Part shown: positions 24,505 through 39,037 of the stretch, piece by piece
How the letters are laid out: the number at the start of each line of letters is the position of its first letter
Position numbering within the stretch: the stretch's first letter is position 1
Origin: Clostridia bacterium
Lineage (GTDB): Bacteria > Bacillota > Clostridia > Oscillospirales > CAG-272
Length of the DNA: 64,000 nucleotides
Direction: 5' to 3'
Assembly: GCA_017407835.1 (NCBI GenBank)
Contig: JAFQVV010000015.1
Coordinates: forward strand, 10,954 to 74,953
The notes under the pieces: generated by a model
Databases searched by the model: none
Told to the model about the DNA's origin: nothing
Seen by the model: only the letters and a program-made list of their open reading frames with translations
Position numbers and translations under genes: made by a program

Positions 24505-26733
24505 ATGGAATTTGTCTATCAACTAATCAATTTTCTTCTTCTTGCAGCACTGATTTGGATCTTTGCGCGCAAGATGATTGTCTCTATTTTTGCCAATCGC
24601 AGTGAACGAATCAATACCGCACTGGATGAAGCAGAACGAATTGAGCAGAGCGATATGCAGCTGCCTCAAATTCCCGATGCTTTCAAGGAGGAAGTCTCTC
24701 CCACGATTCTTGAAGAGGCCCATGAGATCCGTCGTCTGGCAGAAGCAGAGAAGGAAAATATTCGGCAGCAGACTGAGCGTGAAATGTATGGTATGCGCCG
24801 TGAAATGCTGACCGGTGTAAAAGATGTGTTCATTCACAAAATGATCACGCGTGTAACAGAGCTCATCCAAACCGAGCCGTATGCATCTCAGCTTCGTGCC
24901 AAAGAGGCAGAGTTCGCCGAGATGATTATGGAGCGAATGGAGGTTACCCCCGGCGATATGGCCTATCTGCGCCGCTCGGATGTGCTCTATATTACGCTCA
25001 CCTCTGCTTATCCGCTTGCACAGGAAATTGTTGATGAAATCGGTCGCCGAGCAACCGAAATGCTGGAGCAGATCGGCGGAAAGCCTTCCTATTGGGTTAA
25101 GGTTGATCCCGATTTAATTGGCGGTCTGCGTTTCCGCGTGGGTGACACTGTGTATGACTGTACAGTTGCCGATCGTCTTTATTTGCTGCGTCATGAATTG
25201 GAAAAACGGGAAATTCACGGTGATGAAGATGCTGAGCAGATCGTGGCGGATTTGCTCCATGGCATCATGACAATGAAGCATGGCGTCAACGAGTTCCAGC
25301 TCGGTCGTGTCATCAGCGTATCGGATGGTATTTGCTGGCTTGACGGTCTTGCCGATATTATGTACGGTGAGGTGGTTGAGTTTGAGTGCGGAGAGCGTGG
25401 CATGGTGCTGGATATTGAGCCCGATCGCATCGGCTGTGTGATTTACGGTAAATACGAGCATATTGAAAGCGGAAGCCGTGTCAGACGTGTTGGCCGCATT
25501 GCTTCTGTCCCCTGCGGTGATGCACTGCTCGGACGAGTTGTTAACCCCATCGGCCAGGCACTGGACGGAAAGGGGCGTATTTGGACCAAAGAGCGCCGTC
25601 CGATTGAGTGCAAGGCCCCGAGCATTCCCGACCGTTCGGCTGTATTTCGTCCGATGCATACGGGAATCAAGGCGATTGATGCACTGGTGCCCATCGGCCG
25701 CGGTCAGCGAGAGTTGATTATCGGCGACCGCCAGACCGGAAAAACCTCAATTGCAATCGACGCGATTATCAACCAAAAAGGGAAGAATACTGTCTGCCTT
25801 TATGTTGCGATCGGTCAGAAAGATACCACCATTGTCGATATTCGCGAGAAGCTTGCCAAACACGGTGCCATGGAATATACAACAATTGTATGTGCCCCGG
25901 CATCCTCCTCGGCTTCCTTCCAGTATATAGCACCCTTTGCCGGTGCCGCAATGGCAGAGTATTTTATGTACGCGGGCAGAGATGTGCTTATCGTCTATGA
26001 TGATCTTTCCAAGCACGCTGTCGCATATCGCGAGTTATCCCTGCTGCTGCACCGTCCGTCCGGACGAGAAGCTTATCCGGGTGATGTGTTCTATCTCCAT
26101 GCACGCTTGCTTGAGCGTGCAGCACAGCTCTCCGCGGAAAATGGCGGCGGTTCAATCACCGCTCTGCCCATCATTGAGACACAGGCAGGCGATATTTCGG
26201 CATATATTCCCACCAATGTCATCTCAATTACCGACGGACAGATATTCTTGGATGCTGATCTCTTCAATGAGGGACAGCGCCCGGCTGTTAATGTCGGTCT
26301 TTCGGTTTCCCGCGTTGGCAGTGCGGCACAAACAAAGTTGATGAAGCAGGTTTCTTCCCGTCTGCGCATGGAACTTGCACAGTACCGTGAATTGGCAGGC
26401 TTCACGCAATTCGGTTCGGATGTTGACGCGGCAACCAAACGCATTCTCGATGCCGGTGAGCGGATGATGAGTGCTTTGCGCCAGAACCGCTATGAGCCGT
26501 TGCCCGACTGGAAACAGGTTTTGCTGATTTATGCCGTCGCCGAAGGGTATGCTGCGCATATCTCACCTGCTGAGCTGGATCGCTTTGCCGAAGAACTGTA
26601 TGTGTATTTTGAAACGGCACAGCCGGATACGGTGGAAATGCTGCGCCGTGGGCAAAAGATGTCTGATCAAGACAAAGCATGCCTTAATGCGGCACTTTCG
26701 GCCTTTGGGGCATCGATGGGTGAGGTGTCCTGA
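24505..26733 (+). CDS. atpA: ATP synthase alpha subunit fused in one ORF to N-terminal b-like and delta(OSCP)-like modules
   Basis: The ORF is a single 742-aa frame. Residues 1-30 form a TM helix, followed by a charged coiled coil (b-like). Residues about 160-230, LTSAYPLAQEIVDEI...DPDLIGGLRFRVGDTVYDCTVADRL, match the delta C-terminal pattern. From about residue 240 onward a full alpha subunit follows (VISVSDGICWLDGL, GDRQTGKTSIAIDAI, ITDGQIFL). No separate atpH gene is present in the operon. Confidence 0.85.
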   Translation: MEFVYQLINFLLLAALIWIFARKMIVSIFANRSERINTALDEAERIEQSDMQLPQIPDAFKEEVSPTILEEAHEIRRLAEAEKENIRQQTEREMYGMRREMLTGVKDVFIHKMITRVTELIQTEPYASQLRAKEAEFAEMIMERMEVTPGDMAYLRRSDVLYITLTSAYPLAQEIVDEIGRRATEMLEQIGGKPSYWVKVDPDLIGGLRFRVGDTVYDCTVADRLYLLRHELEKREIHGDEDAEQIVADLLHGIMTMKHGVNEFQLGRVISVSDGICWLDGLADIMYGEVVEFECGERGMVLDIEPDRIGCVIYGKYEHIESGSRVRRVGRIASVPCGDALLGRVVNPIGQALDGKGRIWTKERRPIECKAPSIPDRSAVFRPMHTGIKAIDALVPIGRGQRELIIGDRQTGKTSIAIDAIINQKGKNTVCLYVAIGQKDTTIVDIREKLAKHGAMEYTTIVCAPASSSASFQYIAPFAGAAMAEYFMYAGRDVLIVYDDLSKHAVAYRELSLLLHRPSGREAYPGDVFYLHARLLERAAQLSAENGGGSITALPIIETQAGDISAYIPTNVISITDGQIFLDADLFNEGQRPAVNVGLSVSRVGSAAQTKLMKQVSSRLRMELAQYRELAGFTQFGSDVDAATKRILDAGERMMSALRQNRYEPLPDWKQVLLIYAVAEGYAAHISPAELDRFAEELYVYFETAQPDTVEMLRRGQKMSDQDKACLNAALSAFGASMGEVS

Positions 26734-29344: not shown

Positions 29345-29373
29345 TCGATGATAGATGAACATAATTAAATTTC

Positions 29374-29414
29374 AAAAGAGGTTGTCGCGCGATTAAGCGC
29401 GACAACCTCTTTTG
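29374..29414. terminator. bidirectional terminator (atpC / ABC ATPase convergent)
   Basis: AAAAGAGGTTGTCGCGC-gattaa-GCGCGACAACCTCTTTT is a perfect 14-bp GC-rich stem with A and T runs. Confidence 0.85.
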
Positions 29415-29430
29415 GAATGCGTGAATATGT

Positions 29431-30309
29431 TTACTGTGTATCTGTATTTCCAAACACATAGAGATAATAATCTTCTAATGTGGGTGAGACGATTTTGGCT
29501 TGATGGGTTGGGGGCGTATCTGCCAGAACGCGAAGCAGGATTTCTCCCGTGTTTGCGTTTCTTGTGATATTCGTTACGCGAAATTGATCCTGCATTGTTT
29601 GCACTTCGGAGTCGGTGCACGGTACAAGCCAGACCTGACCGTTAATTTTTTCGGTCAGTATTTTTGGGGGCGCGTGATCCACAATGACACCTTTTTTGAG
29701 TAAGATAATCTCTTTGGCAATAAACTCAATGTCGGAGACGACATGTGTGGCAATTAACACAATCTTGTTGAATGCAATTTGGGAGATGTAGTTGCGGATG
29801 GCGATGCGTTGTTTGGGATCAAGGCCTGCGGTGGGCTCATCGAGAATAAGGACCTGCGGATCGCCCAATACCGCCTGCGCTAATGTTAAACGCTGTTTCA
29901 TGCCGCCCGATAAGGCACTGATCTTTCGTTTGATCACATCATCCAATTCTACCGCGGAAAGAATATCGGGAATTTGTTGTACTGCTTCGGCTTTCGATAG
30001 CCCCTTGAGCGCCGCCATGTACCACATGAAACGTTCGACCGTAAAGTTTGGATATAATCCGGGATATTGCGGCATAAAGCCAAGTTTTTCCCGAAAACGT
30101 GTACCCATATCAAGGATATTCTCGTTGTCACACAGAATTTCACCCGAATCGGCTTTGAGGTTGTCGGTAAGAATATTCATCAGGGTCGATTTGCCCGAGC
30201 CGTTTGGTCCGAGCAGGGCGTAGATGCCCGCGTCGAGAGTAGCCGTGAAGCCGTTGAGTGCGAGGTTTGTGCCATAGGATTTGGAGATGTTTTGGATGGA
30301 TAGTGTCAC
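29431..30309 (-). CDS. ABC transporter ATP-binding protein (ABC-2/DrrA-like, single NBD)
   Basis: GTG start 30309 follows AAGGAGGT. LLGPNGSGKSTL is Walker A, LSGGMKQRL the signature motif and LILDEPTAGLD Walker B. It is the last gene of the minus-strand operon. Confidence 0.9.
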   Translation of the reverse strand: MTLSIQNISKSYGTNLALNGFTATLDAGIYALLGPNGSGKSTLMNILTDNLKADSGEILCDNENILDMGTRFREKLGFMPQYPGLYPNFTVERFMWYMAALKGLSKAEAVQQIPDILSAVELDDVIKRKISALSGGMKQRLTLAQAVLGDPQVLILDEPTAGLDPKQRIAIRNYISQIAFNKIVLIATHVVSDIEFIAKEIILLKKGVIVDHAPPKILTEKINGQVWLVPCTDSEVQTMQDQFRVTNITRNANTGEILLRVLADTPPTHQAKIVSPTLEDYYLYVFGNTDTQ

Positions 30310-30321
30310 TCTGATACCTCC

Positions 30322-31653
30322 TTAAGGTTCTGGTTGAATCATACGAATTTCGCCGAAAACATAGCTGTTTGAATTGACGCCGTTTGCGGCAAGATGCTCG
30401 CGGATGCGCTCCCCGTCAACCACGTTGCCCGAAACGATCAGATGTGCGTCTTGCATACCGATGATGCTTTGCCCATCAAAGCCAGGCGTGAAAATCTCGC
30501 GCAGCTCACCGCTGTCAAGATCAAGCGCAATCAGCGTTGATCCGCTGTCGGACACGATGTAATCCACCTGAATATGCTTGCCAAGCGAATCGACCACCGC
30601 ATCACCGGTTTCGCCCGTCATCGTTGCGGCAATCGCCTCAACAAACACCGGCTTATATGGGATAATGAACAACGTACCGTTAACAAGATACATCGGGGTA
30701 AATGCGCTGGTCGGCGTGTTAACACCATCATAAAGCAATTCCGGTTCAGCATCCAAAGCGGTAAGATTGATACGATAACACGCATGGAGCTGTTTTTCTG
30801 CGCGGACAGTGGCTTTACCGTCGGAAGACTGATTTTTGTCCTGCGGATGAGCATCAACTATCAGCGCTCCCGCGCGGTTTTCGCTTTTCTGTGTATAGTA
30901 CAGCCATCCATCATGAAGAAAACTGCCATACAGTGCAACGCCCTGCATCACTTTTTCTGTTGTCTGAAAATCTGCTGTGGAAGCATAAAGACAGGCATCC
31001 TCATAGCTGACCCAATATGCAGTTCTCTCCCCGTCCGTATCGGTTATACCGATGATATTGACCACATCATACGCTCCCTCGGTCAGCATACGCAGATTTT
31101 TTCCATCGGCATCCATGACGTAGAGATTGCTTCCGAGCCCGACGGCATTTCCGGTTTCATCGTAGGTAGTGCACTGAATGACCAGATAGATATCGTTTGC
31201 GAACAGCCAGAACCGATTGATCATCTCGGCATGCTCCACCAGGACTGTGCGGATGCCCTTTTTCATATCCAGCCGATACAGGCGGGAGATCTGCTTCTTC
31301 GTCTCAAGGTCGATCACGCGGTCGGTATAGTATACAATCGGTGTGCTGTCTTTGTCCGAAACAACGGCGATCTCCGGCTGAAGCCACAGATACGCCGGAC
31401 ATTCCGTGGAATCGTGAGCACAGAGCGGATCATAGCAGACGAGATTTTCTGTGCCGTCCGGGGCGGTATAGGCAAGCAGACCATCTGTGTTTTTATAATA
31501 GCGATAACCATTGTGCATAAATTGGCTGGCAGAAGCTGTGTAAGCATACTCGTTTTCCGCTGTGCATCCGACGAGCAGCAGAAGTACGGCAATTATGATT
31601 AAAACAAAATTTATGCCGTAGGATTTGGATATGTTTTGGATGGATAATGTCAT
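30322..31653 (-). CDS. lipoprotein paralog 4 (DPLC-motif family); N-terminus is a copy of the ABC ATPase N-terminus
   Basis: ATG 31653 follows AAGAGGA with a 6-nt spacer. MTLSIQNISKSYG (identical to ATPase residues 1-13) is followed by INFVLIIIAVLLLLVGC (lipobox LVGC). The motif is CYDPLCAHDSTEC. The ORF track start 31737 has no SD. Confidence 0.6.
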   Translation of the reverse strand: MTLSIQNISKSYGINFVLIIIAVLLLLVGCTAENEYAYTASASQFMHNGYRYYKNTDGLLAYTAPDGTENLVCYDPLCAHDSTECPAYLWLQPEIAVVSDKDSTPIVYYTDRVIDLETKKQISRLYRLDMKKGIRTVLVEHAEMINRFWLFANDIYLVIQCTTYDETGNAVGLGSNLYVMDADGKNLRMLTEGAYDVVNIIGITDTDGERTAYWVSYEDACLYASTADFQTTEKVMQGVALYGSFLHDGWLYYTQKSENRAGALIVDAHPQDKNQSSDGKATVRAEKQLHACYRINLTALDAEPELLYDGVNTPTSAFTPMYLVNGTLFIIPYKPVFVEAIAATMTGETGDAVVDSLGKHIQVDYIVSDSGSTLIALDLDSGELREIFTPGFDGQSIIGMQDAHLIVSGNVVDGERIREHLAANGVNSNSYVFGEIRMIQPEP

Positions 31654-31751
31654 GGTGTGTCCTCTTAGCGTAATTTTTCGCCAAACTGCATTTAGATGTG
31701 CGGAGAGCAACTGCTGTTTTTCGGAATTACTTATCATGTTTTCCTGATGAT

Positions 31752-33050
31752 TTATCCGAATTCATAGAGCGTGTATTCTCCCGTTTCCATATCATAGGCA
31801 GAAAATGCCGTATTGCTAAGGTATAGAATCCATTTGTCGCAGACCAGAATCCAGCGAGCGCCGGTAATTGGATTGGAAGCCTCCTGCTCCGGCGTTTGTA
31901 CCAGACGGAGTGGATTGCCGTCATGATCGCATTGCCAGAGACCGTCGCTAAAATTCAAATAGAGATAATGATCGGTAATACTCCCCCACATCAACGGATA
32001 TGCGCTTACCGTTTCCGGCACCTCTCCGAGCATTTCTTCTTCGCCCGTGAGGAGATTTCGCTTCGTATAATATAATCGATATAAAGCGGTAGTAATCGGA
32101 TTTCCGTTTTCATCTGTCAGAGGTTCTCCACGTCCATCCACTTCTTCCATCAACTTTACCGGTTCTCCGGAAGGCTTTTGGTAATAGCAGTAATCACCTG
32201 CCCGTGCGGTATTGATGTAATAATAGGGGAAATGAAGAAGCGCCGACTCGCCGCTGTTCCGATCGACACGCGTTACGCGATTGCTCTCTCCGATTCCCGT
32301 GTGAAAATAATAATACTGCTCGTCAATATCCTGAAGATTGCTGAACCCGTCCTCCGTCTGCTCAAACGTATAGAGGATTTCCTCCGTTTTCCCGAAGGAA
32401 TCGGGCTTCGTCCGGCAGAGAAGCCTGATCTTTTCACCGGTAGGATTGTCCGCGTATACCGGTCGGAAAACGCTGTAATAGAGATATCCGTCCGAAAGGA
32501 TCTTGTGAAGGGTATACTGCGAGCCGTCATCCGGGATGTCATAGAGCTTCTTTATGCTTTGAGATGCTATATTATAGCACAGAAATGAATAATCACGGAT
32601 TTCCGTTCTGCCGGAAATATCTCTTCTCCATTCGGTTGTTCCGGTGATAAAGTATACTTTATCATCATCAACCAACCATTGATCTGAGCCATTTGCAAAA
32701 ACACATTCTTCTCCGGTACACAGCGGATCGGTACAGACGCTGTTAAGGCTTCCGGTCATGGGATTGAATCGGTAAAAATTTCCGGTTTCTCCCGATGGCC
32801 AGAAATAAATCATATTGTCAAACAGTCTGATACAGGAATTGTTCGGTGTGAAGACATGGTCAAACCCGTCTATAGTCTCACTTAGAATATCCTCCGAAGA
32901 ATCCGGTATTGTATGCCCACCACTGCAGGAAGAGAAAAGAAGCAATATAAGAAAAATGGCTGCGATTAACTTACCTCCATTTCTCTTGCCTGCGTTGAGG
33001 GCGAGGTTTGTGCCGTAGGATTTGGTGATTCGATTGATTGTTATTTTCAA
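31752..33050 (-). CDS. lipoprotein paralog 3 (DPLC-motif family); N-terminus carries an ABC ATPase-derived segment
   Basis: TTG start 33050 follows AAGGAGGA with a 5-nt spacer and overlaps the upstream stop (TTGA). MKITINRITKSYGTNLALNA (ATPase-like) is followed by GKRNGGKLIAAIFLILLLFSSC (lipobox FSSC). The motif is CTDPLCTGEEC. Confidence 0.6.
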   Translation of the reverse strand: MKITINRITKSYGTNLALNAGKRNGGKLIAAIFLILLLFSSCSGGHTIPDSSEDILSETIDGFDHVFTPNNSCIRLFDNMIYFWPSGETGNFYRFNPMTGSLNSVCTDPLCTGEECVFANGSDQWLVDDDKVYFITGTTEWRRDISGRTEIRDYSFLCYNIASQSIKKLYDIPDDGSQYTLHKILSDGYLYYSVFRPVYADNPTGEKIRLLCRTKPDSFGKTEEILYTFEQTEDGFSNLQDIDEQYYYFHTGIGESNRVTRVDRNSGESALLHFPYYYINTARAGDYCYYQKPSGEPVKLMEEVDGRGEPLTDENGNPITTALYRLYYTKRNLLTGEEEMLGEVPETVSAYPLMWGSITDHYLYLNFSDGLWQCDHDGNPLRLVQTPEQEASNPITGARWILVCDKWILYLSNTAFSAYDMETGEYTLYEFG

Positions 33051-34291
33051 GAGTATCCTCCTTGTTCATCCATCCGATGCAGCATCATGATGCCATTTTC
33101 GATGCAGGCGCGGCAATGATATGTCGAAGTTTCCCCCGCATATTCGGTTTTACCATTGGTGATCTCAACCCATAATCCCGATGCCGCAGCGCAGCGGATC
33201 GTCACCGTGTCCTCCGGCTGAACGTCGCCGGCAAGCGTGTATCGAGTCACGGTGCCATCGGCGGGCTTGATACAGCAGACGGACAGCGTTGCATTGACAT
33301 AAAAGTCAATAGGATCGGTTTCCCCGTTTGGACCGCCTGTTGGCATTTCCCGGCTGCCAAGATAACGCTTTTCAGACTCGGTAAACCAGATTCCCCCGCC
33401 GAAAGTGAACCCATTCACACTTTCGCCTACCTTTTTCCATTTCCCGTTGTGATACACATACAGATACCATCGCTTATCGGTATAGACGTGCATTCCACCA
33501 TTTTCGCTTGGACATTCGGCAGAAAATTCAGCCACAGAACGTAAATAGGTTTTTTCGCCATATATTGTAATGTCATACAAACGACCTTCGACATCACCTG
33601 CCGCATCCACCTCTGCAACACCGCTTTTTCGGTCGATAATATCCATCAGGAGATCGCCGTTCACGTTCGGATAAAGCAGATAGTAACGGGCATCATCTGC
33701 ATAAAAAGAACTGCTGATATCGAGTTCGTCTTCCAATACTTTCTCGGCCTTTCCGCCGTTTGTCGCGATTCGCATGACATAAGCAGATTGTTCGCTGATG
33801 CCGAGGTGATTGTCTGAGAAATTTTCCTGCCCACTGTAAAAGCCCTGTTCAAAGTAAAGAAAGCCATCCGCATACTGCATATAGAGGGAGGTGTTGGTCG
33901 AGAAATCATAGGTGTGCAGGAGAGTGAAGTCTGAGCCATCGGGTTTCATGGAAAAAATCTGCCGATACACAGTGCCGTTTTCATCGGTGAGGGCGGGATT
34001 GGTGGCATTCATATAAAGCCGTTCCCCATCGGTAACCAGCGTCTTCATCCAAAGCTGCCGGGAGGAGGGGCAGAGGCTGTCCTCGCTGTCATGGGTGCAG
34101 AGAGGGTCACGGCAAATATCGTCGTACGTCGCGTCCCAATTCGGATTCCATACCTGCAGGTGGAGATTTTCGTAATATGTTTCTCCCAGCAGACAGCCCT
34201 CACGGGTGTTACAGTAGTCTTGCATCGGGGGTTTACCGCAACTGCACAGGAGCAGAAGAGCGGCAAGGGTTATGCAGAGCAGGTTTTTCAT
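33047..34291 (-). CDS. lipoprotein paralog 2 (DPLC-motif family)
   Basis: I prefer ATG 34291 (MKNLLCITLAALLLLCSCGKPP) over the track start 34303. The motif is CRDPLCTHDSEDSLC. Confidence 0.6.
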   Translation of the reverse strand: MKNLLCITLAALLLLCSCGKPPMQDYCNTREGCLLGETYYENLHLQVWNPNWDATYDDICRDPLCTHDSEDSLCPSSRQLWMKTLVTDGERLYMNATNPALTDENGTVYRQIFSMKPDGSDFTLLHTYDFSTNTSLYMQYADGFLYFEQGFYSGQENFSDNHLGISEQSAYVMRIATNGGKAEKVLEDELDISSSFYADDARYYLLYPNVNGDLLMDIIDRKSGVAEVDAAGDVEGRLYDITIYGEKTYLRSVAEFSAECPSENGGMHVYTDKRWYLYVYHNGKWKKVGESVNGFTFGGGIWFTESEKRYLGSREMPTGGPNGETDPIDFYVNATLSVCCIKPADGTVTRYTLAGDVQPEDTVTIRCAAASGLWVEITNGKTEYAGETSTYHCRACIENGIMMLHRMDEQGGYS

Positions 34292-34325
34292 TATTCTCAC
34301 CATTCTTTTATATTCGGTAAAAATA

Positions 34326-35624
34326 TCACTCGATATCCAACAATTCCCAAACCGTATATTTCAAACCGGAGTAACCGATATAATCGGTTTCATAATGCTT
34401 GTTGATCGTATCGATATCATAAACACTGCCGGAAACGAGGAACTTTCCTTTCCCCGTATACTCGATGGTCTTGATATCATAGCCGAGATCGGACAGAACC
34501 ACACGCTGCTCTTTGGTGTTAAGGTCAACCGCCCAAAGCTCGCCGTCCGTTTCGCTCCAGATGTAGGTCAAAGCGTTCTTTGCAACAGAATTGCTCCACT
34601 CGATTTTGCCCTGCAGTTCAAACTGTGCAGGAACACAGTAGAGCGTATCCTCCACGATGCACCAATCCGACCTTGTCGAAATGCCGGAGATCAGTGCTTC
34701 TGTTGTGCCGCTGCCGTCAAGCTTTGTGCGCATCAAGGTGCAGGTATTGGCGGCATCCAGCGCTTGGGGATACTGGCCGATGGCATATCCGTAAACCTCT
34801 CTGCCTTCCGGCTTCGGCTCATCGGGGGTAAGGGAGATGACCTCGCGCCGGTCGGTATAATAAACCCAGCCGTCGTGGATCATGATCCTCCACAGATTGT
34901 TGAGGCCATCCATCACAACCTCTTCCGTGACAAAATCATCTGTTGTGCGGCAGAGAGTTTCTCCGCAGCGATAGTAAAATAAACCGTCCTCGTAATACTC
35001 AACACGATAGTTGTCAACAAAGGCATTCTCACCAAAGGTGCATTGCTCCAGCTCGCCGCCGGAAAGCGGTGCGCGCCAGATGTTGACCTGCTGTACATCC
35101 GATTCGATCTGCATCCACGTGGAATTGAGCGTGAAATAGACGTGGGTATCGGTCAGAAGAAAGCGGATGCCATAGCCGAAAGCCGAATCGGGAATTGAAG
35201 TGATGACTCGGCATTTTCCGGTTTTCATATCCATCGCAAGCAAATCGGAACGATCGTCATACCCCTTGCTCGGATCATCGGGATCGCTGAGAAAGCTCTC
35301 CACGCGGAAGAAATAGATGACAAATCCCCTGTCCTGCGGAACAAGCGCAATCTGTGTGCCCGGCGCCCCGGCAAAGGCTGCACATTCCTTTTTGTCATGG
35401 GAACAGAGCGGGTCGACGCATCCCACATAAACCGTCTGTTCTTCGTCATCGATCTCGGTATAGGTCAGAAACGCTCCTTTGTCGGGAACGGACTGGATGG
35501 AATAGATCCGATCACCCCAAACAGCCCGTTCTGCGGAAAGGACACAGTCCTGCAGGGGTTCATTCTGTGCGCAGGATGACAAGAATATCAAAGCGATCAA
35601 AAGAATTGCAAACAGTTTTTTCAT
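34326..35624 (-). CDS. lipoprotein paralog 1 (DPLC-motif family)
   Basis: MKKLFAILLIALIFLSSCAQ has lipobox LSSC. The motif is CVDPLCSHDKKEC. It is rich in Y/W/D/G beta-strand-like repeats. Confidence 0.65.
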   Translation of the reverse strand: MKKLFAILLIALIFLSSCAQNEPLQDCVLSAERAVWGDRIYSIQSVPDKGAFLTYTEIDDEEQTVYVGCVDPLCSHDKKECAAFAGAPGTQIALVPQDRGFVIYFFRVESFLSDPDDPSKGYDDRSDLLAMDMKTGKCRVITSIPDSAFGYGIRFLLTDTHVYFTLNSTWMQIESDVQQVNIWRAPLSGGELEQCTFGENAFVDNYRVEYYEDGLFYYRCGETLCRTTDDFVTEEVVMDGLNNLWRIMIHDGWVYYTDRREVISLTPDEPKPEGREVYGYAIGQYPQALDAANTCTLMRTKLDGSGTTEALISGISTRSDWCIVEDTLYCVPAQFELQGKIEWSNSVAKNALTYIWSETDGELWAVDLNTKEQRVVLSDLGYDIKTIEYTGKGKFLVSGSVYDIDTINKHYETDYIGYSGLKYTVWELLDIE

Positions 35625-35656
35625 GAGCTTTCCGTCCTTTCGATAATATCAGAGAA

Positions 35657-38188
35657 TCACTTCACAAACATCCGCTTCGCGGGCATCATTATTGCCGACA
35701 CCGCCGCGATTGCCACCGCCATCCACAGCGTGAGCATCGCATAGCCGTTGCCAAACAACGCCATCTCAGCCGACTGCAAGAACAGCGGCGTACCTGCCAG
35801 CAGGTTGAGGAAATTGACTTGCTCCGCCGCCGCAAGTCCGAAATAGGCACACAGTGCGGGCAGGAGCGTGAGAATCACAGCCGTGCCGAGGACGGGAATA
35901 TACCGTGCCAACAGCTCCGACAGCGCACAGACGAGCATCGCCATCAGCAAAGCCCCTACCGTACGCATGATAAAGAAGACCGCGAAATATTGCCCTATTG
36001 TAATGTCGCCGGATACATCTGCGAACATTTGCATTGATACCAGAGGGGCATTCATGGCAGGCAGGTCGTAGCCCATGACAATGATTGCGGTATCCACAGC
36101 ACCGGTGAGAAGAGCCAGAATGATCGCGATCATACCGGAGGAGATGAGCTTTGCGTAGAAGGTCTTGTGCCGTCCGTTTTTGGTGGAGCGGAGAAGCTGC
36201 GCAAAACTGCCGGAAGAGGATTTTGAAGCATATTCTGCCGCAAACGATCCGGTTAAGAGAAGTAAAATAGCCGCGTAGAGGAAGAGATCCGCATCTTCTG
36301 CGTACATCTTCTGCCAGCCCGAATCATAGACGAACCAACCACGCACACCGGTCTCGGATTCCTTTTGCTTTAGATATTCTGCGTGGTTTTCGATAACGGT
36401 TAGCAGCTTTGCCCGGGAGTAGGCATAGTTGAAGTCGGAAAGATATGCGCAATATTCATCGAAGGAAATTTCTTGGTTTTCGTATGCTTGCTGCATGATG
36501 CTTTGCTTGGCGATTGCTTCATCAATGCGCTTGCGTTCTTGGGCGAGGTAAGCTGATTTTTCTTCGGTCAGCGGTCCCTCCAGAGTGGTCATGTATTCCT
36601 TATATACTGCATCGGCATAAGAGTTTGATGGCGTGTTGGTGTCGTAGGAATACCATGTCTTCACGCAGAGAATGAGTAAAACGATGACCAGAAAGCGGGA
36701 GGAGATAAGTGTTTTGAAAATTTCAGCCAGAACCAATGCGCGGCTATAGGTGCGCATTTTGCGGCTTCTCCTGCGATTCGGAACAGAAATTTTATGATGA
36801 TGAAATTTGGCAATATTTATCATGCACCATGCGAGGGCAGTATCGATCCACCCAAGACGGAGACAAATCTTTCCTTTGCAGTAGAGAAAGATGGTAACCA
36901 TTGCACACACTACAATCAGCAGTGAAAATACGGTCAGCATGACGGGTAAAAATCCGGCAACGGTACCAAAGAGATTCATAGCGCGATACCGCACAAATAT
37001 CGGATTTCCTACCGCCCCGGTCATAAGGTTGAGATTTTTGAGGACATTGTTGCCGTCGATATAGGATATTATATAAAGTAAGAAATTGAGTCCAAACATG
37101 CCAAGACCGGAGAGATAAATGAGGATATAGTTGTAGAACAGCACCGACAGGGTGAGCACAATCATGGAAAACACCGCGAACGTCAGCAATTTTATGCCGA
37201 TGTTGGTGAGAAAATACTGGCCGATGGTAATTTGATAGGGGGAGAGTGTGAAGGTATTCAGCGCTTGAATCACGTTATGCGGAGAGGAAAATCCGATCCG
37301 CAAACCGTATACGGCAAATGTGGATAGAGTGAACATCAGCACGAAGATAGAGGAGAGCAAGAGCATGGTGAGTATTTTTGCCGTTGCCGTTCTGAGTCGC
37401 CCATTTTTTGCCGTGCGCATGATGGGCAGAAATCCACTTTGCTTTTCCTGCGCAAAAATCAAGCTGCCCAGCATAATGAGCATCATAAAGATAAAGATGT
37501 TCACTGTGTCGTAAGCGAAATATTCATCCCAACCCCGAGTGTATTCCACTTCAATTTCCACAGCATCTCGCATCTGTTCATATAATTCAATCACACGAAG
37601 TTGATAGCGATAGGTAAACGAATCTTCGGTAATATTCATATCGGCAAAAGCATCTAAATTGTCGCGCGCGCGTGTAATTACCCGCTCAAGCAAAGCAGGA
37701 TATTCCCGTGCCGCTTCAACATTGCTGTAAAGCTTGGCAAATAACAATTGGTCCGGATAAGCTTCATCGGTCGAATAAAGATTGGGCATCACCTGCGGCA
37801 AAAAATCATCATTTCCGTCTCGCATGGCTTGACGATGCAGTGTTTCCTGCTCGGCATTGAATGCCTGCATCTCGGCATAGTATGCATCCAATTCGGTCGA
37901 ATTTGCAGTGTATTCGGCAAAGAAAGCAGAGATCATTTGGGTGGGCTCTTTGGCCGCTTCCGTTTGATCGGCGGTATACCATGCAATGGCAGTGTTGAGC
38001 ATCAAAAGGAGAAAGAAGAATACCCACAAATATTTCACACCGAGAAGTTTTTTTATCTCATAGCCGACAAATTGTCGATTTTTTTGTTTTTGTGAGCATG
38101 TCCTCACCGCATCCGATTCATTGAGCAAACTTAACCAGTGCTCATCCACATAGCCGATGCCTTCAAATAATTTTTCAGCATTCTTCAT
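35657..38188 (-). CDS. 843-aa membrane protein: short cytoplasmic N-terminus plus two tandem ABC-2-type permease modules, each preceded by a large helical extracytoplasmic region
   Basis: ATGA overlap with the sigma gene stop. TM1 lies at about residues 58-80. FAQEKQSGFLPIMRTAKNGRLRT and AAEYASKSSSGSFAQLLRSTKNGRHKT are two copies of the ABC-2 permease E-x-x-x-G-(T/S)...R motif, each followed by about 5 TM helices. Confidence 0.65.
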   Translation of the reverse strand: MKNAEKLFEGIGYVDEHWLSLLNESDAVRTCSQKQKNRQFVGYEIKKLLGVKYLWVFFFLLLMLNTAIAWYTADQTEAAKEPTQMISAFFAEYTANSTELDAYYAEMQAFNAEQETLHRQAMRDGNDDFLPQVMPNLYSTDEAYPDQLLFAKLYSNVEAAREYPALLERVITRARDNLDAFADMNITEDSFTYRYQLRVIELYEQMRDAVEIEVEYTRGWDEYFAYDTVNIFIFMMLIMLGSLIFAQEKQSGFLPIMRTAKNGRLRTATAKILTMLLLSSIFVLMFTLSTFAVYGLRIGFSSPHNVIQALNTFTLSPYQITIGQYFLTNIGIKLLTFAVFSMIVLTLSVLFYNYILIYLSGLGMFGLNFLLYIISYIDGNNVLKNLNLMTGAVGNPIFVRYRAMNLFGTVAGFLPVMLTVFSLLIVVCAMVTIFLYCKGKICLRLGWIDTALAWCMINIAKFHHHKISVPNRRRSRKMRTYSRALVLAEIFKTLISSRFLVIVLLILCVKTWYSYDTNTPSNSYADAVYKEYMTTLEGPLTEEKSAYLAQERKRIDEAIAKQSIMQQAYENQEISFDEYCAYLSDFNYAYSRAKLLTVIENHAEYLKQKESETGVRGWFVYDSGWQKMYAEDADLFLYAAILLLLTGSFAAEYASKSSSGSFAQLLRSTKNGRHKTFYAKLISSGMIAIILALLTGAVDTAIIVMGYDLPAMNAPLVSMQMFADVSGDITIGQYFAVFFIMRTVGALLMAMLVCALSELLARYIPVLGTAVILTLLPALCAYFGLAAAEQVNFLNLLAGTPLFLQSAEMALFGNGYAMLTLWMAVAIAAVSAIMMPAKRMFVK

Positions 38189-38721
38189 AGCGGTATTCCC
38201 TCCTTTTCCAGATGATTTTTTAATTGTTTTCGTAATTTTGCCAGGATTTTGGAAATTTGATTTTGTCTCATGCCGAGTTTTGCTGCGATTTCTTTCACCG
38301 GTTCGGAACAGAAATAGCGTCGGATAAAGATGATACTTTCCCGCTTCGGAAGCATCTCCAGAAAAGAATCAATCGCATGTCCGATGTCCTGTGGCGTCAT
38401 ATCCGTTATGTCTTCACTGATGCACTCGTTTAATTCCACCAAAACAGCAGAGCGTTTCTGCCGATTCTTCGCTTTGATTGTGTTGAGAGCAAAATTACGG
38501 CAAATGCGCAGAGCATATGCCCCAAGAAAATTCGGATTCTCGGGCGGAATAGAATTCCAGACAGCCAAACAGGTGTCATTGAAACACTCCTCGGCATCTG
38601 ATGCGTTTCCTGTAATTTCTTTTGCCGCACAGAGACACAGGCGTTTGTAGGCTCGTTCAAATTCGGTTATGGCGCGTTCATCACGCCGCCAAAACAAGGT
38701 GATAATTTGCACATCTTCCAT
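38185..38721 (-). CDS. RNA polymerase sigma-70 family, ECF-type sigma factor
   Basis: 178 aa. The region 2 pattern (FERAYKRLCLCAAKEITGNASDAEECFNDTCLAVWNSI, LGAYALRICRNFALN) and the region 4 HTH (RESIIFIRRYFCSEPVKEIAAKLGMRQNQISKILAKLRKQL) are present. AAAGGAGGG SD. Confidence 0.85.
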   Translation of the reverse strand: MEDVQIITLFWRRDERAITEFERAYKRLCLCAAKEITGNASDAEECFNDTCLAVWNSIPPENPNFLGAYALRICRNFALNTIKAKNRQKRSAVLVELNECISEDITDMTPQDIGHAIDSFLEMLPKRESIIFIRRYFCSEPVKEIAAKLGMRQNQISKILAKLRKQLKNHLEKEGIPL

Positions 38722-38751
38722 ATGTACCCTCCTTTCTTGTGGGGATAAGCA

Positions 38752-38781
38752 TAGACAAACGGCCCCCTTGTGGTCCTTTCA
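38752..38781 (-). promoter_or_regulatory. candidate ECF-type (autoregulatory) promoter
   Basis: The minus strand reads TGAAAG, 18 nt, TGTCTA, about 30 nt upstream of the sigma start codon. It resembles the TGAAAC-N16/17-CGTCTA class but is imperfect. Confidence 0.3.
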
Positions 38782-38874
38782 CCGATAAAGACAACATTTT
38801 GGGAGAAATCTGCCAACACGTGCAAGAAAAAACAAGATAAATGAATCTCTTATGCAAACTTAAACGGATACAAT

Positions 38875-38930
38875 CCAAAACAGCGGAAACAGCCGGAGGG
38901 AACAATCGGCGATAGTATCCGCTGTTTTGG
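38875..38930 (-). promoter_or_regulatory. 13-bp perfect inverted repeat (stem-loop) at the 5' end of the sigma-operon leader
   Basis: CCAAAACAGCGGA (38875-38887) and TCCGCTGTTTTGG (38918-38930) are separated by a 30-nt spacer that can itself pair (GCCG/CGGC). It lies just downstream of the sigma-A type promoter at 38945-38973. Confidence 0.45.
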
Positions 38931-38944
38931 CTTGTTTTATCTAA

Positions 38945-38973
38945 ATTATATCACGCACTGCGCGCCCAAGCAA
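38945..38973 (-). promoter_or_regulatory. sigma-A type promoter reading toward the ECF sigma operon
   Basis: The minus strand reads TTGCTT, 17 nt, TGaTATAAT. It is overlapped by an 8-bp inverted repeat, TATCACGC...GCGTGATA (38948-38981). Confidence 0.5.
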
Positions 38974-39007: not shown

Positions 39008-39037
39008 TTGACAGCATATTTGCAATTATTTTATAAT
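39008..39037 (+). promoter_or_regulatory. sigma-A type promoter for comEC
   Basis: TTGACA (39008-39013), 18 nt, TATAAT (39032-39037). Confidence 0.5.

Follow-up and report, generated by a model that had tools for sequence, protein, structure and literature searches.

A 64,000-nt stretch of a Clostridia bacterium genome (Oscillospirales, CAG-272; GenBank assembly GCA_017407835.1, contig JAFQVV010000015.1, positions 10,954 to 74,953; hereafter the window) was analyzed computationally for a block of seven tightly packed, co-directional open reading frames (ORFs) called on its minus strand (29431–38721). The block encodes, in order, a sigma factor of the extracytoplasmic function (ECF) type, a fused double ATP-binding cassette type 2 (ABC-2) permease, four lipoproteins (numbered 1 to 4) and an ABC ATPase (Table 1). 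It is best classed as a real, conserved system made from known parts, in which ECF sigma/anti-sigma signalling is coupled to an ABC-2 transporter. On balance it is probably an autoregulated ECF-sigma operon for a three-component envelope machine, with the permease serving as anti-sigma factor through a short N-terminal extension. As an earlier note on this DNA had proposed, the arrangement of sigma factor, permease, lipoproteins and ATPase is apparently undescribed (Pfam, NCBIfam, PADLOC, PDB, PLSDB and full-text literature). Its layout was also confirmed as first described: the gene coordinates stand, two junctions overlap (ATGA, where the permease start codon meets the sigma stop codon, and TTGA between lipoproteins 2 and 3), the remaining gaps are 32, 22, 98 and 12 nt, and the block lies between the atp operon (atpC convergent) and a divergent comEC. 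The strong terminator claimed for the block end was recovered as a hairpin with 22-nt arms, 95% complementary, for which the terminator scan lists 18 pairs.

The case for the permease as a regulator is carried by its extension. In the window this segment reads LFEGIGYVDEHWLSLL... and is followed by a basic stretch. An extension of 35–45 amino acids (aa) was present in all 35 permeases with a sigma gene immediately upstream, in the form of the motif L[YF]xGIGxIDxKW[IL]xLA, then a basic stretch, the elbow YE[IL]KK and the first transmembrane (TM) helix; by contrast, it was present in none of ~45 sigma-less permeases, which begin at MKxxxYEIKK (equivalent to query residues 39–42). NTGA overlaps were found at 33 of 36 sigma-permease junctions. 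Sigma divergence tracked extension divergence with the permease core controlled (partial Mantel r = 0.58, reached by 0 of 2000 permutations). The same genomes hold other ECF sigma genes that overlap by 4 nt with a gene for a single-pass protein. The N-termini of these proteins (FLDAVGRVDKQYIEE, FFDAMDYIDDNMIEA and LLDALAYADADLILEA, with a basic stretch and then a TM helix after each) resemble the extension in their motif (xxAxGxIDxxaIxEA plus basic stretch). On inspection of the ORFs in the comEC-sigma interval, no small ORF was credible as an anti-sigma gene, in agreement with the earlier note, and the block contains no two-component genes. The restriction of the extension to sigma-linked permeases, the overlapping junctions, the co-variation, the lack of a stand-alone anti-sigma gene, the similar N-termini on other proteins encoded directly after a sigma factor (+1) and a conserved ECF-type promoter (below) together argue for the permease as anti-sigma factor. 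This lends comparative support to the earlier proposal that the transporter doubles as sigma regulator. In the AlphaFold2 (AF2) model, residues 1–38 of the permease form three short helices at a predicted local distance difference test score (pLDDT) of ~45, as expected of a segment that would fold on a partner.

The sigma factor carries regions 2 and 4 only, within a 178-aa product of the size usual for ECF (sigma-70 group 4) proteins (~170–200 aa). Both Pfam models, Sigma70_r2 at 35.1 bits and Sigma70_r4_2 at 34.1, exceeded their cutoffs, and NCBIfam TIGR02937 scored 79.8 bits (cutoff 42.9). Upstream of it, 16 loci with an intergenic region before sigma could be aligned at GGCAGAAA-N14-TGTCTTATA-N3-TGAAGG, their intergenic sequence being otherwise unalignable; the promoter may also be written GGCAGAAA-N14-TGTCTTAT, a conserved -35/-10 pair as in autoregulated ECF promoters. 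In the window the -35 element is GGCAGA (38814–38809) and the -10 element GTCTTTAT (38792–38785), with the conserved TGAAAGG box downstream of the latter (38780–38774). The promoter sits ~64 nt 5' of the sigma ATG, and nothing else in the 64 kb matches the motif strictly. This two-block, ECF-style site suggests that the operon is autoregulated, and is its presumed promoter. It displaces the site at 38752–38781 named in the earlier note, the TGAAAGG of which is the box conserved after the -10 element; this box lies, in relatives, too near the ribosome-binding site (RBS) for a -35 role. A second site named there (38945–38973) is an unconserved sigma-70-like match, unlisted by the consensus scan and without counterpart in related loci (130 nt upstream of sigma inspected). 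An inverted repeat is situated between the comEC and ECF promoters, with a T-rich run after it on the plus strand. The leader region has a folding z-score of -3.4. The repeat had no Rfam match, and Rfam gave no real match over the block.

The permease was modelled by AF2 with a pLDDT of 82.5, weak only at residues 1–38, in some loops of 6–8 residues and in the linker between its halves. The best Foldseek matches, one per half, were PmtD (of PmtCD), NosY (of NosDFY), ABCG25, ABCH and KpsM, at a probability of 0.9–1.0 and a target-normalised template modelling score (TM-score) of ~0.5 per half, and each half is predicted to adopt the type V (ABC-2) fold. As judged from the model and the distribution of charges, the N-terminus is inside, followed by 6+6 TM helices, with a basic, cytoplasmic linker between the halves. 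This bears out the earlier description of an 843-aa protein with a short cytoplasmic N-terminus and two permease modules. After its first TM helix each half has an all-helical extracytoplasmic domain (~residues 75–225 and 520–635) with a conserved aromatic motif at its end, EYTRGWxEYFxYD for half 1 and GWFxYDTGW for half 2. In Pfam the window permease had only a sub-threshold match to ABC2_membrane_3 (16.7 bits; cutoff 31.6), and some homologues carry PF12698, PF12730 or PF12679; no FtsX domain was matched. PDB sequence and profile searches with the permease and a lipoprotein returned nothing meaningful.

Permease homologues formed 110 clusters, all from metagenome-assembled genomes (MAGs) of uncultured Clostridia/Eubacteriales and nearly all labelled hypothetical. 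A pattern scan of species-representative genomes yielded 77 loci, every one of uncultured Clostridia, and their ORFs were classified by phmmer and an iterated hidden Markov model (HMM) of the lipoprotein family. A family lipoprotein adjoined the permease in 68 of 76 permease clusters and an ATPase was present in 42; C.DP.C was found in 175 of the 202 adjacent family lipoproteins. Two architectures were seen. Loci of distant permeases (<~47% identity, 780–800 aa) run lipoprotein-permease-ATPase (L-P-A), have no sigma gene and usually have exactly one upstream lipoprotein gene. Loci of closer permeases run sigma-permease-lipoproteins-ATPase (S-P-L(n)-A), with 1–7 lipoproteins in complete arrays, 8 after the permease in one array interrupted by a contig end, and at times extra lipoprotein genes upstream of sigma or downstream of the ATPase. 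Lipoprotein, double permease and ATPase thus make up the conserved core, to which the sigma factor was added. The neighbourhood survey suggested in the earlier note thus found a conserved core, with the sigma gene confined to one clade. Single genomes may hold several paralogous systems (L011, L028, L036, L064, L066, L076 and others), and the MAG RGIG6940 has five loci in which sigma-linked and sigma-less types are mixed. A few sigma-anti-sigma pairs occur near sigma-less modules (L041, L063, L070, L072, L073, L085, L087); they were judged close to background without a count and were not used as evidence. In the relatives' loci neither comEC nor atp genes adjoin the block, so its location is not conserved, and a ComEC scan of species-representative genomes found no relative.

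Several observations weigh against the permease as anti-sigma factor. No anti-sigma model in Pfam or NCBIfam matched the 843-aa protein at E ≤ 0.1, and no class I anti-sigma domain (ASD), zf-HC2, RskA, FecR or DUF4179 domain was recognisable in this +1 protein, the cytoplasmic N-terminus of which is ~40 aa long. An HMM of the extension had no significant match beyond permeases among all ORFs of the fetched loci (best E = 0.12), so the likeness to other putative anti-sigma N-termini is at the level of a motif only. Since sigma-linked permeases form one clade nested in sigma-less diversity, the perfect co-occurrence of sigma and extension amounts to one gain kept in at least 35 loci, and physical linkage between sigma and the 5' end of the permease gene could account for the Mantel signal. 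For the permease, Foldseek gave marginal E-values (0.03), though the probabilities were ~1. Well-studied membrane-bound anti-sigma factors release their sigma by proteolysis or partner switching. A 12-TM protein would be hard to clear by the usual regulated proteolysis, and the mechanism of sigma release is therefore speculative.

Much of this would suit a simpler arrangement, in which the sigma factor only drives the transporter-lipoprotein operon, control is transcriptional or exerted by an unlinked factor, and the extension serves the transporter (ATPase regulation, assembly). The undetected anti-sigma domain, the unmatched extension HMM and the single evolutionary event all agree with it, and ECF groups without any anti-sigma factor exist (PMC7826278). 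We nevertheless regard this arrangement as unlikely, because a +1 gene with a 4-nt overlap stands in the canonical anti-sigma position, an overlap kept at nearly every junction surveyed, and because the extension is found only where the sigma factor is and co-varies with it.

The lipoproteins are also predicted to belong to a single fold. Lipoprotein 1 was confidently modelled as a beta-propeller (pLDDT 87.4), and its Foldseek neighbours were generic propellers (TM-score ≤ 0.41). Pfam PF16472 (DUF5050) scored 22.3 bits against lipoprotein 4 (cutoff 27) and did not match lipoproteins 1 to 3; 13 of 34 diverse family members matched it at E ≤ 0.01 (best E = 1.4e-10). These scores point to a distant relationship rather than clear membership, and they support the earlier suggestion of DUF5050-related beta-propellers. 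The four window proteins are 18–29% identical in pairs and have C..CxDPLC in common. The Cys motif claimed for them in the earlier note therefore stands; the claim that they share only that motif and a beta-rich composition does not, as the whole propeller fold is common. Signal ends read from the translations (no dedicated predictor) are FLSSC, LLCSC (atypical), LFSSC and LLVGC, and the lipobox Cys is conserved in ≥90% of the family, as expected of bacterial lipoproteins. The family comprises 560 clusters at 50% identity among 1.84 billion, as found by exhaustive search of representatives; a profile search of a word-indexed database added almost nothing. By eye, a 700-aa family lipoprotein (L045, 6137–8239) has a C-terminal tail resembling a solute-binding protein, and a 620-aa one (L038, 5040–6902) an LRR_5/BspA-like tail.

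A physical partnership of lipoprotein and permease is indicated by a distant relative (L087, 4483–7792) in which the permease is split into two genes. Residues 1–360 of its second half are fused to a DUF5050-type propeller through an extra TM helix, which is a former signal peptide with LLTGC; this natural fusion speaks for lipoprotein and permease acting as a complex. In the same locus, divergent and upstream, are a sigma gene and a 94-aa single-pass protein.

The ATPase motifs, read from the translation, are intact: GPNGSGKS (Walker A), LSGGMKQR (signature), LILDEPTAGLD (Walker B, with the catalytic Glu) and ATH (H-loop). Its nearest NCBIfam models were GldA, DrrA, the ATPase of a pyrroloquinoline quinone (PQQ) system (TIGR03864; 158 bits, cutoff 302) and the lantibiotic-protection ATPase (TIGR03740; 143 bits, cutoff 309.75), all below cutoff, as was the PmtC model (106 bits). 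PADLOC gave generic ATPase similarity only, so the block is not a known defence system. One module without a sigma gene (P0103; L083, L084), made up of lipoprotein, permease, a 79-aa protein and ATPase, is carried by a conjugative element that also has a relaxase, a NikA-like protein, IS110 transposases, a serine recombinase and PemK. The P0103 permease is indexed in 44 blocks of the contig collection. Among PLSDB plasmids, tblastn with the 843-aa permease found no match.

These data bear on a second alternative, immunity against a bacteriocin or antimicrobial peptide after the manner of LanFEG and LanI, with lipoproteins for different toxic peptides, an ABC-2 pump to expel these and the sigma factor in place of a two-component regulator. 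The architecture of two permease halves, one ATPase and lipoproteins suits such a role, as do the lantibiotic-protection and PmtC scores, the peptide exporter PmtCD as best structural match of the permease, the L-P-A module on a conjugative element and the several old lipoprotein subfamilies, which could serve several specificities. The lipoproteins, however, are predicted beta-propellers rather than LanI-type folds, no bacteriocin genes were noted beside the loci, and every ATPase match lies far under its family cutoff. Argued by analogy, this specific role has perhaps one chance in four; it would be compatible with an anti-sigma permease.

A third possibility is that the lipoproteins are clients, into whose N-terminal site the transporter loads a metal or cofactor, or which it matures, as NosDFY-NosL does for NosZ. 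The motif in question is C-x-D-P-x-C-x-H-x4-C, found in lipoprotein 1 as the knuckle CxDPLCxHx4C (residues 69–81, nt 35382–35420). In 34 diverse family members its C, C, H and C never vary and D and P are ≥90% conserved; NosY ranks with the permease's best structural matches; and lipoprotein and permease stand at 1:1 in the core. Outside the knuckle, however, only one Tyr of the propeller is conserved and the blades hold no conserved metal-ligand set, no NosD-like or NosL-like partner is present, and the Foldseek match is to a generic type V fold. We consider a client role, drawn from the NosDFY analogy, improbable.

The history of the array was read from orthologs and from short repeats. Orthologs found elsewhere are 78% (lipoprotein 3, L009), 73% (lipoprotein 1, L017), 52% (lipoprotein 4, L017) and 48% (lipoprotein 2, L017) identical to the window proteins, and those of lipoprotein 1 always come directly after the permease (L017, L028, L011, L010). 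Since each window paralog is closer to its ortholog than to its neighbours, with which it shares no more than 26% identity in this comparison, the sequences indicate old subfamilies with a history of reshuffling, gain and loss rather than tandem duplicates of recent origin. A 57-nt segment of the ATPase 5' end (RBS into ~codon 19) is repeated in frame at the starts of lipoproteins 3 and 4, where it now supplies the n-region of two signal peptides. No such copy was found in ~200 other lipoprotein genes, and the copies are thus restricted to the window lineage. Because they are far better conserved than the lipoprotein gene bodies, they are read as rearrangement junctions, at least two in number, with a breakpoint within the first ~60 nt of the ATPase gene, and not as recent duplication of neighbours. 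The molecular scars reported in the earlier note are thus real, and the recent tandem expansion read from them does not follow.

Strain-level variation in paralog number, which the earlier note had proposed to count, was not seen: wherever same-species contigs of other samples overlap the window they agree with it, and one of them (L088) covers the ATPase and the four lipoprotein genes in the same array. An apparent difference in lipoprotein 2 of L001 (window 33257–33277) came from a run of Ns at a scaffold gap. Several metagenome contigs whose permease is identical (L001; ends of L002–L005) break inside lipoprotein 1 or 2, which may be a coverage or assembly effect. A recent, actively expanding tandem set of interchangeable receptor modules is accordingly very improbable, for all that the in-frame scars and a copy number ranging between species from 1 to at least 7 (8 in the array cut by a contig end) might suggest it: orthologs at 48–78% against paralogs at no more than 26%, scars that are far better conserved than the rest of each gene and are confined to this lineage, and the agreement of same-species contigs over the stretches covered all speak otherwise.

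Returning to the permease as anti-sigma factor, a mechanism can be outlined. In the sigma clade, where the sigma gene is immediately upstream of the permease gene and translationally coupled to it, the permease has gained a cytoplasmic segment of ~40 aa just before the elbow helix, and this segment would hold the sigma factor at the membrane, making the transporter its anti-sigma factor. A change in transporter state would then release sigma, triggered by substrate or lipoprotein at the extracytoplasmic domains or by the ATPase cycle beside the elbow helix. In type V transporters the elbow helix contacts the ATPase; as the extension directly precedes that helix, transporter state or ATPase docking could control release. 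Freed sigma would transcribe the whole operon from the conserved promoter. The lipoproteins would be extracytoplasmic partner or receptor modules that dock on the helical permease domains, their genes having multiplied in the sigma clade into arrays of old, distinct subfamilies. The most likely role, as a guess by analogy with PmtCD and LanFEG/LanI and, weakly, from carriage on a mobile element, would be export of, detoxification of or immunity against an envelope-active compound. The broader proposal, of a new class of anti-sigma factor in which an ABC-2 permease sequesters an ECF sigma by its N-terminal tail and releases it with the transport cycle or with engagement of a lipoprotein by its ligand, is put forward tentatively, as a possibility somewhat short of probable.

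ECF sigma factors are a main route of bacterial signalling. If the proposal is true, a 12-TM transporter that acts as anti-sigma factor would bring a new input logic, with transport activity itself as the signal, and would achieve flux sensing in a single polypeptide without a kinase, a separate anti-sigma factor or regulated proteolysis. It would also offer a compact, potentially orthogonal sensor-regulator pair, and would place an expandable set of beta-propeller lipoprotein receptors under such control in gut Clostridia. The lipoprotein, double permease and ATPase in any case constitute a widespread, wholly uncharacterised module of uncultured gut and rumen Clostridia, and the presence of one version of it on a conjugative element hints at a selectable trait, e.g. 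resistance or immunity.

Table 1. Features of the sigma-permease-lipoprotein-ATPase block and its flanks (window coordinates).
Feature	Position	Strand	Details
ECF sigma factor	38185..38721	-	178 aa; regions 2 and 4 only; Pfam, NCBIfam
Fused double ABC-2 permease	35657..38188	-	843 aa, 6+6 TM; AF2, Foldseek
Permease codons 1-40, cytoplasmic N-terminal extension	38069..38188	-	candidate sigma-binding (anti-sigma) segment
Lipoprotein 1	34326..35624	-	432 aa; AF2, Foldseek, orthologs
Lipoprotein 2	33047..34303	-	418 aa; family HMM E = 4.7e-59
Lipoprotein 3	31752..33050	-	432 aa; TTG start overlapping the lipoprotein 2 stop
Lipoprotein 4	30322..31653	-	443 aa counted from the ATG at 31653
ABC ATPase	29431..30309	-	292 aa, GTG start; Pfam ABC_tran 4.6e-32
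ATPase 5'-end copy in lipoprotein 3	32993..33049	-	79% identity; repeat family D1; ~19 codons
ATPase 5'-end copy in lipoprotein 4	31596..31652	-	77% identity; repeat family D1; ~15 codons
Conserved ECF-type promoter (putative)	38785..38814	-	motif aligned in 16 loci
Sigma-70-like site, TTGCTT-17-TGATATAAT	38945..38973	-	read from sequence; function uncertain
Inverted repeat	38870..38935	.	21-nt arms, 90% complementary, 24-nt loop
Bidirectional terminator hairpin	29369..29418	.	between convergent atpC and ATPase gene

The flanks of the block hold further features. The atp operon contains a single uninterrupted 742-aa ORF (24505–26733, plus strand), and its copy on the same-species contig L088 matched the Pfam domains ATP-synt_B, OSCP (delta) and alpha subunit; the ORF appears to fuse b-like, delta and alpha subunits. 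Just 5' of comEC is a perfect 12-of-12 sigma-70 consensus promoter (TTGACA-18-TATAAT; 39008–39037, plus strand). Past comEC (L001 5396–6634; window ~41.5–43 kb) are cotJA, cotJB and a Mn-catalase (cotJC-like), a gene content that suggests a spore-forming source organism.

Among the closest systems already described is SigY-YxlCDEFG of B. subtilis (ECF31), in which, as proposed here, an ECF sigma is co-transcribed with an ABC-2 transporter (ATPase and permease) and autoregulated. There SigY is held by a small stand-alone anti-sigma factor, YxlC, together with YxlD (PMC7826278). In the window, by contrast, the +1 product is a 12-TM permease with the extension and the +2 product a lipoprotein, no small genes such as yxlC or yxlD are present, the lipoproteins are predicted beta-propellers, and the ATPase is encoded at the far end of the operon. 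Predicted anti-sigma factors in the 2021 ECF classification span 0–6 TM helices, with 1, 2, 3, 4 and 6 helices among those listed, and ABC transporters figure there only as genomic neighbours (ECF258, ECF234, ECF31; PMC7826278), and full-text literature searches found no transporter-fused anti-sigma factor.

As a transporter the block resembles PmtCD, NosDFY-NosL and LanFEG-LanI, with which it shares the 6-TM permease fold, a lipoprotein partner encoded alongside and an ATPase of DrrA, GldA or lantibiotic-protection type. It differs from them in its fused halves, each with a helical extracytoplasmic domain of 115–150 aa, and in a partner that is a predicted beta-propeller with a CCHC knuckle, and all of its sequence matches are sub-cutoff; LanFEG/LanI in particular is set apart by the lack of a LanI-type lipoprotein and by an ATPase below the TIGR03740 cutoff. 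The PQQ-linked system (TIGR03864/TIGR03866) likewise pairs an ABC-2 transporter, associated with PQQ-dependent alcohol dehydrogenase, with a YVTN beta-propeller protein, but it is proteobacterial and periplasmic and has neither a sigma factor nor a fused permease. DUF5050/LRP1-like propellers (PF16472) have the same fold, and DUF5050 itself has no known function; the window family is distinguished by its own invariant N-terminal CxDPxCxHx4C and lipobox. In BceAB-BceRS, FecA-FecR-FecI, SusC-like signalling and MalK-MalT, a transcription regulator is informed of how active or occupied a transporter is, and the relay is a histidine kinase or an anti-sigma factor, each a separate protein, or else a contact between ATPase and activator. 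BceB is a 10-TM FtsX-type permease, whereas the window permease is predicted to be of type V and has no BceRS-like genes beside it. From all four, the system proposed here would differ in that the sigma-binding segment is part of the permease polypeptide itself.

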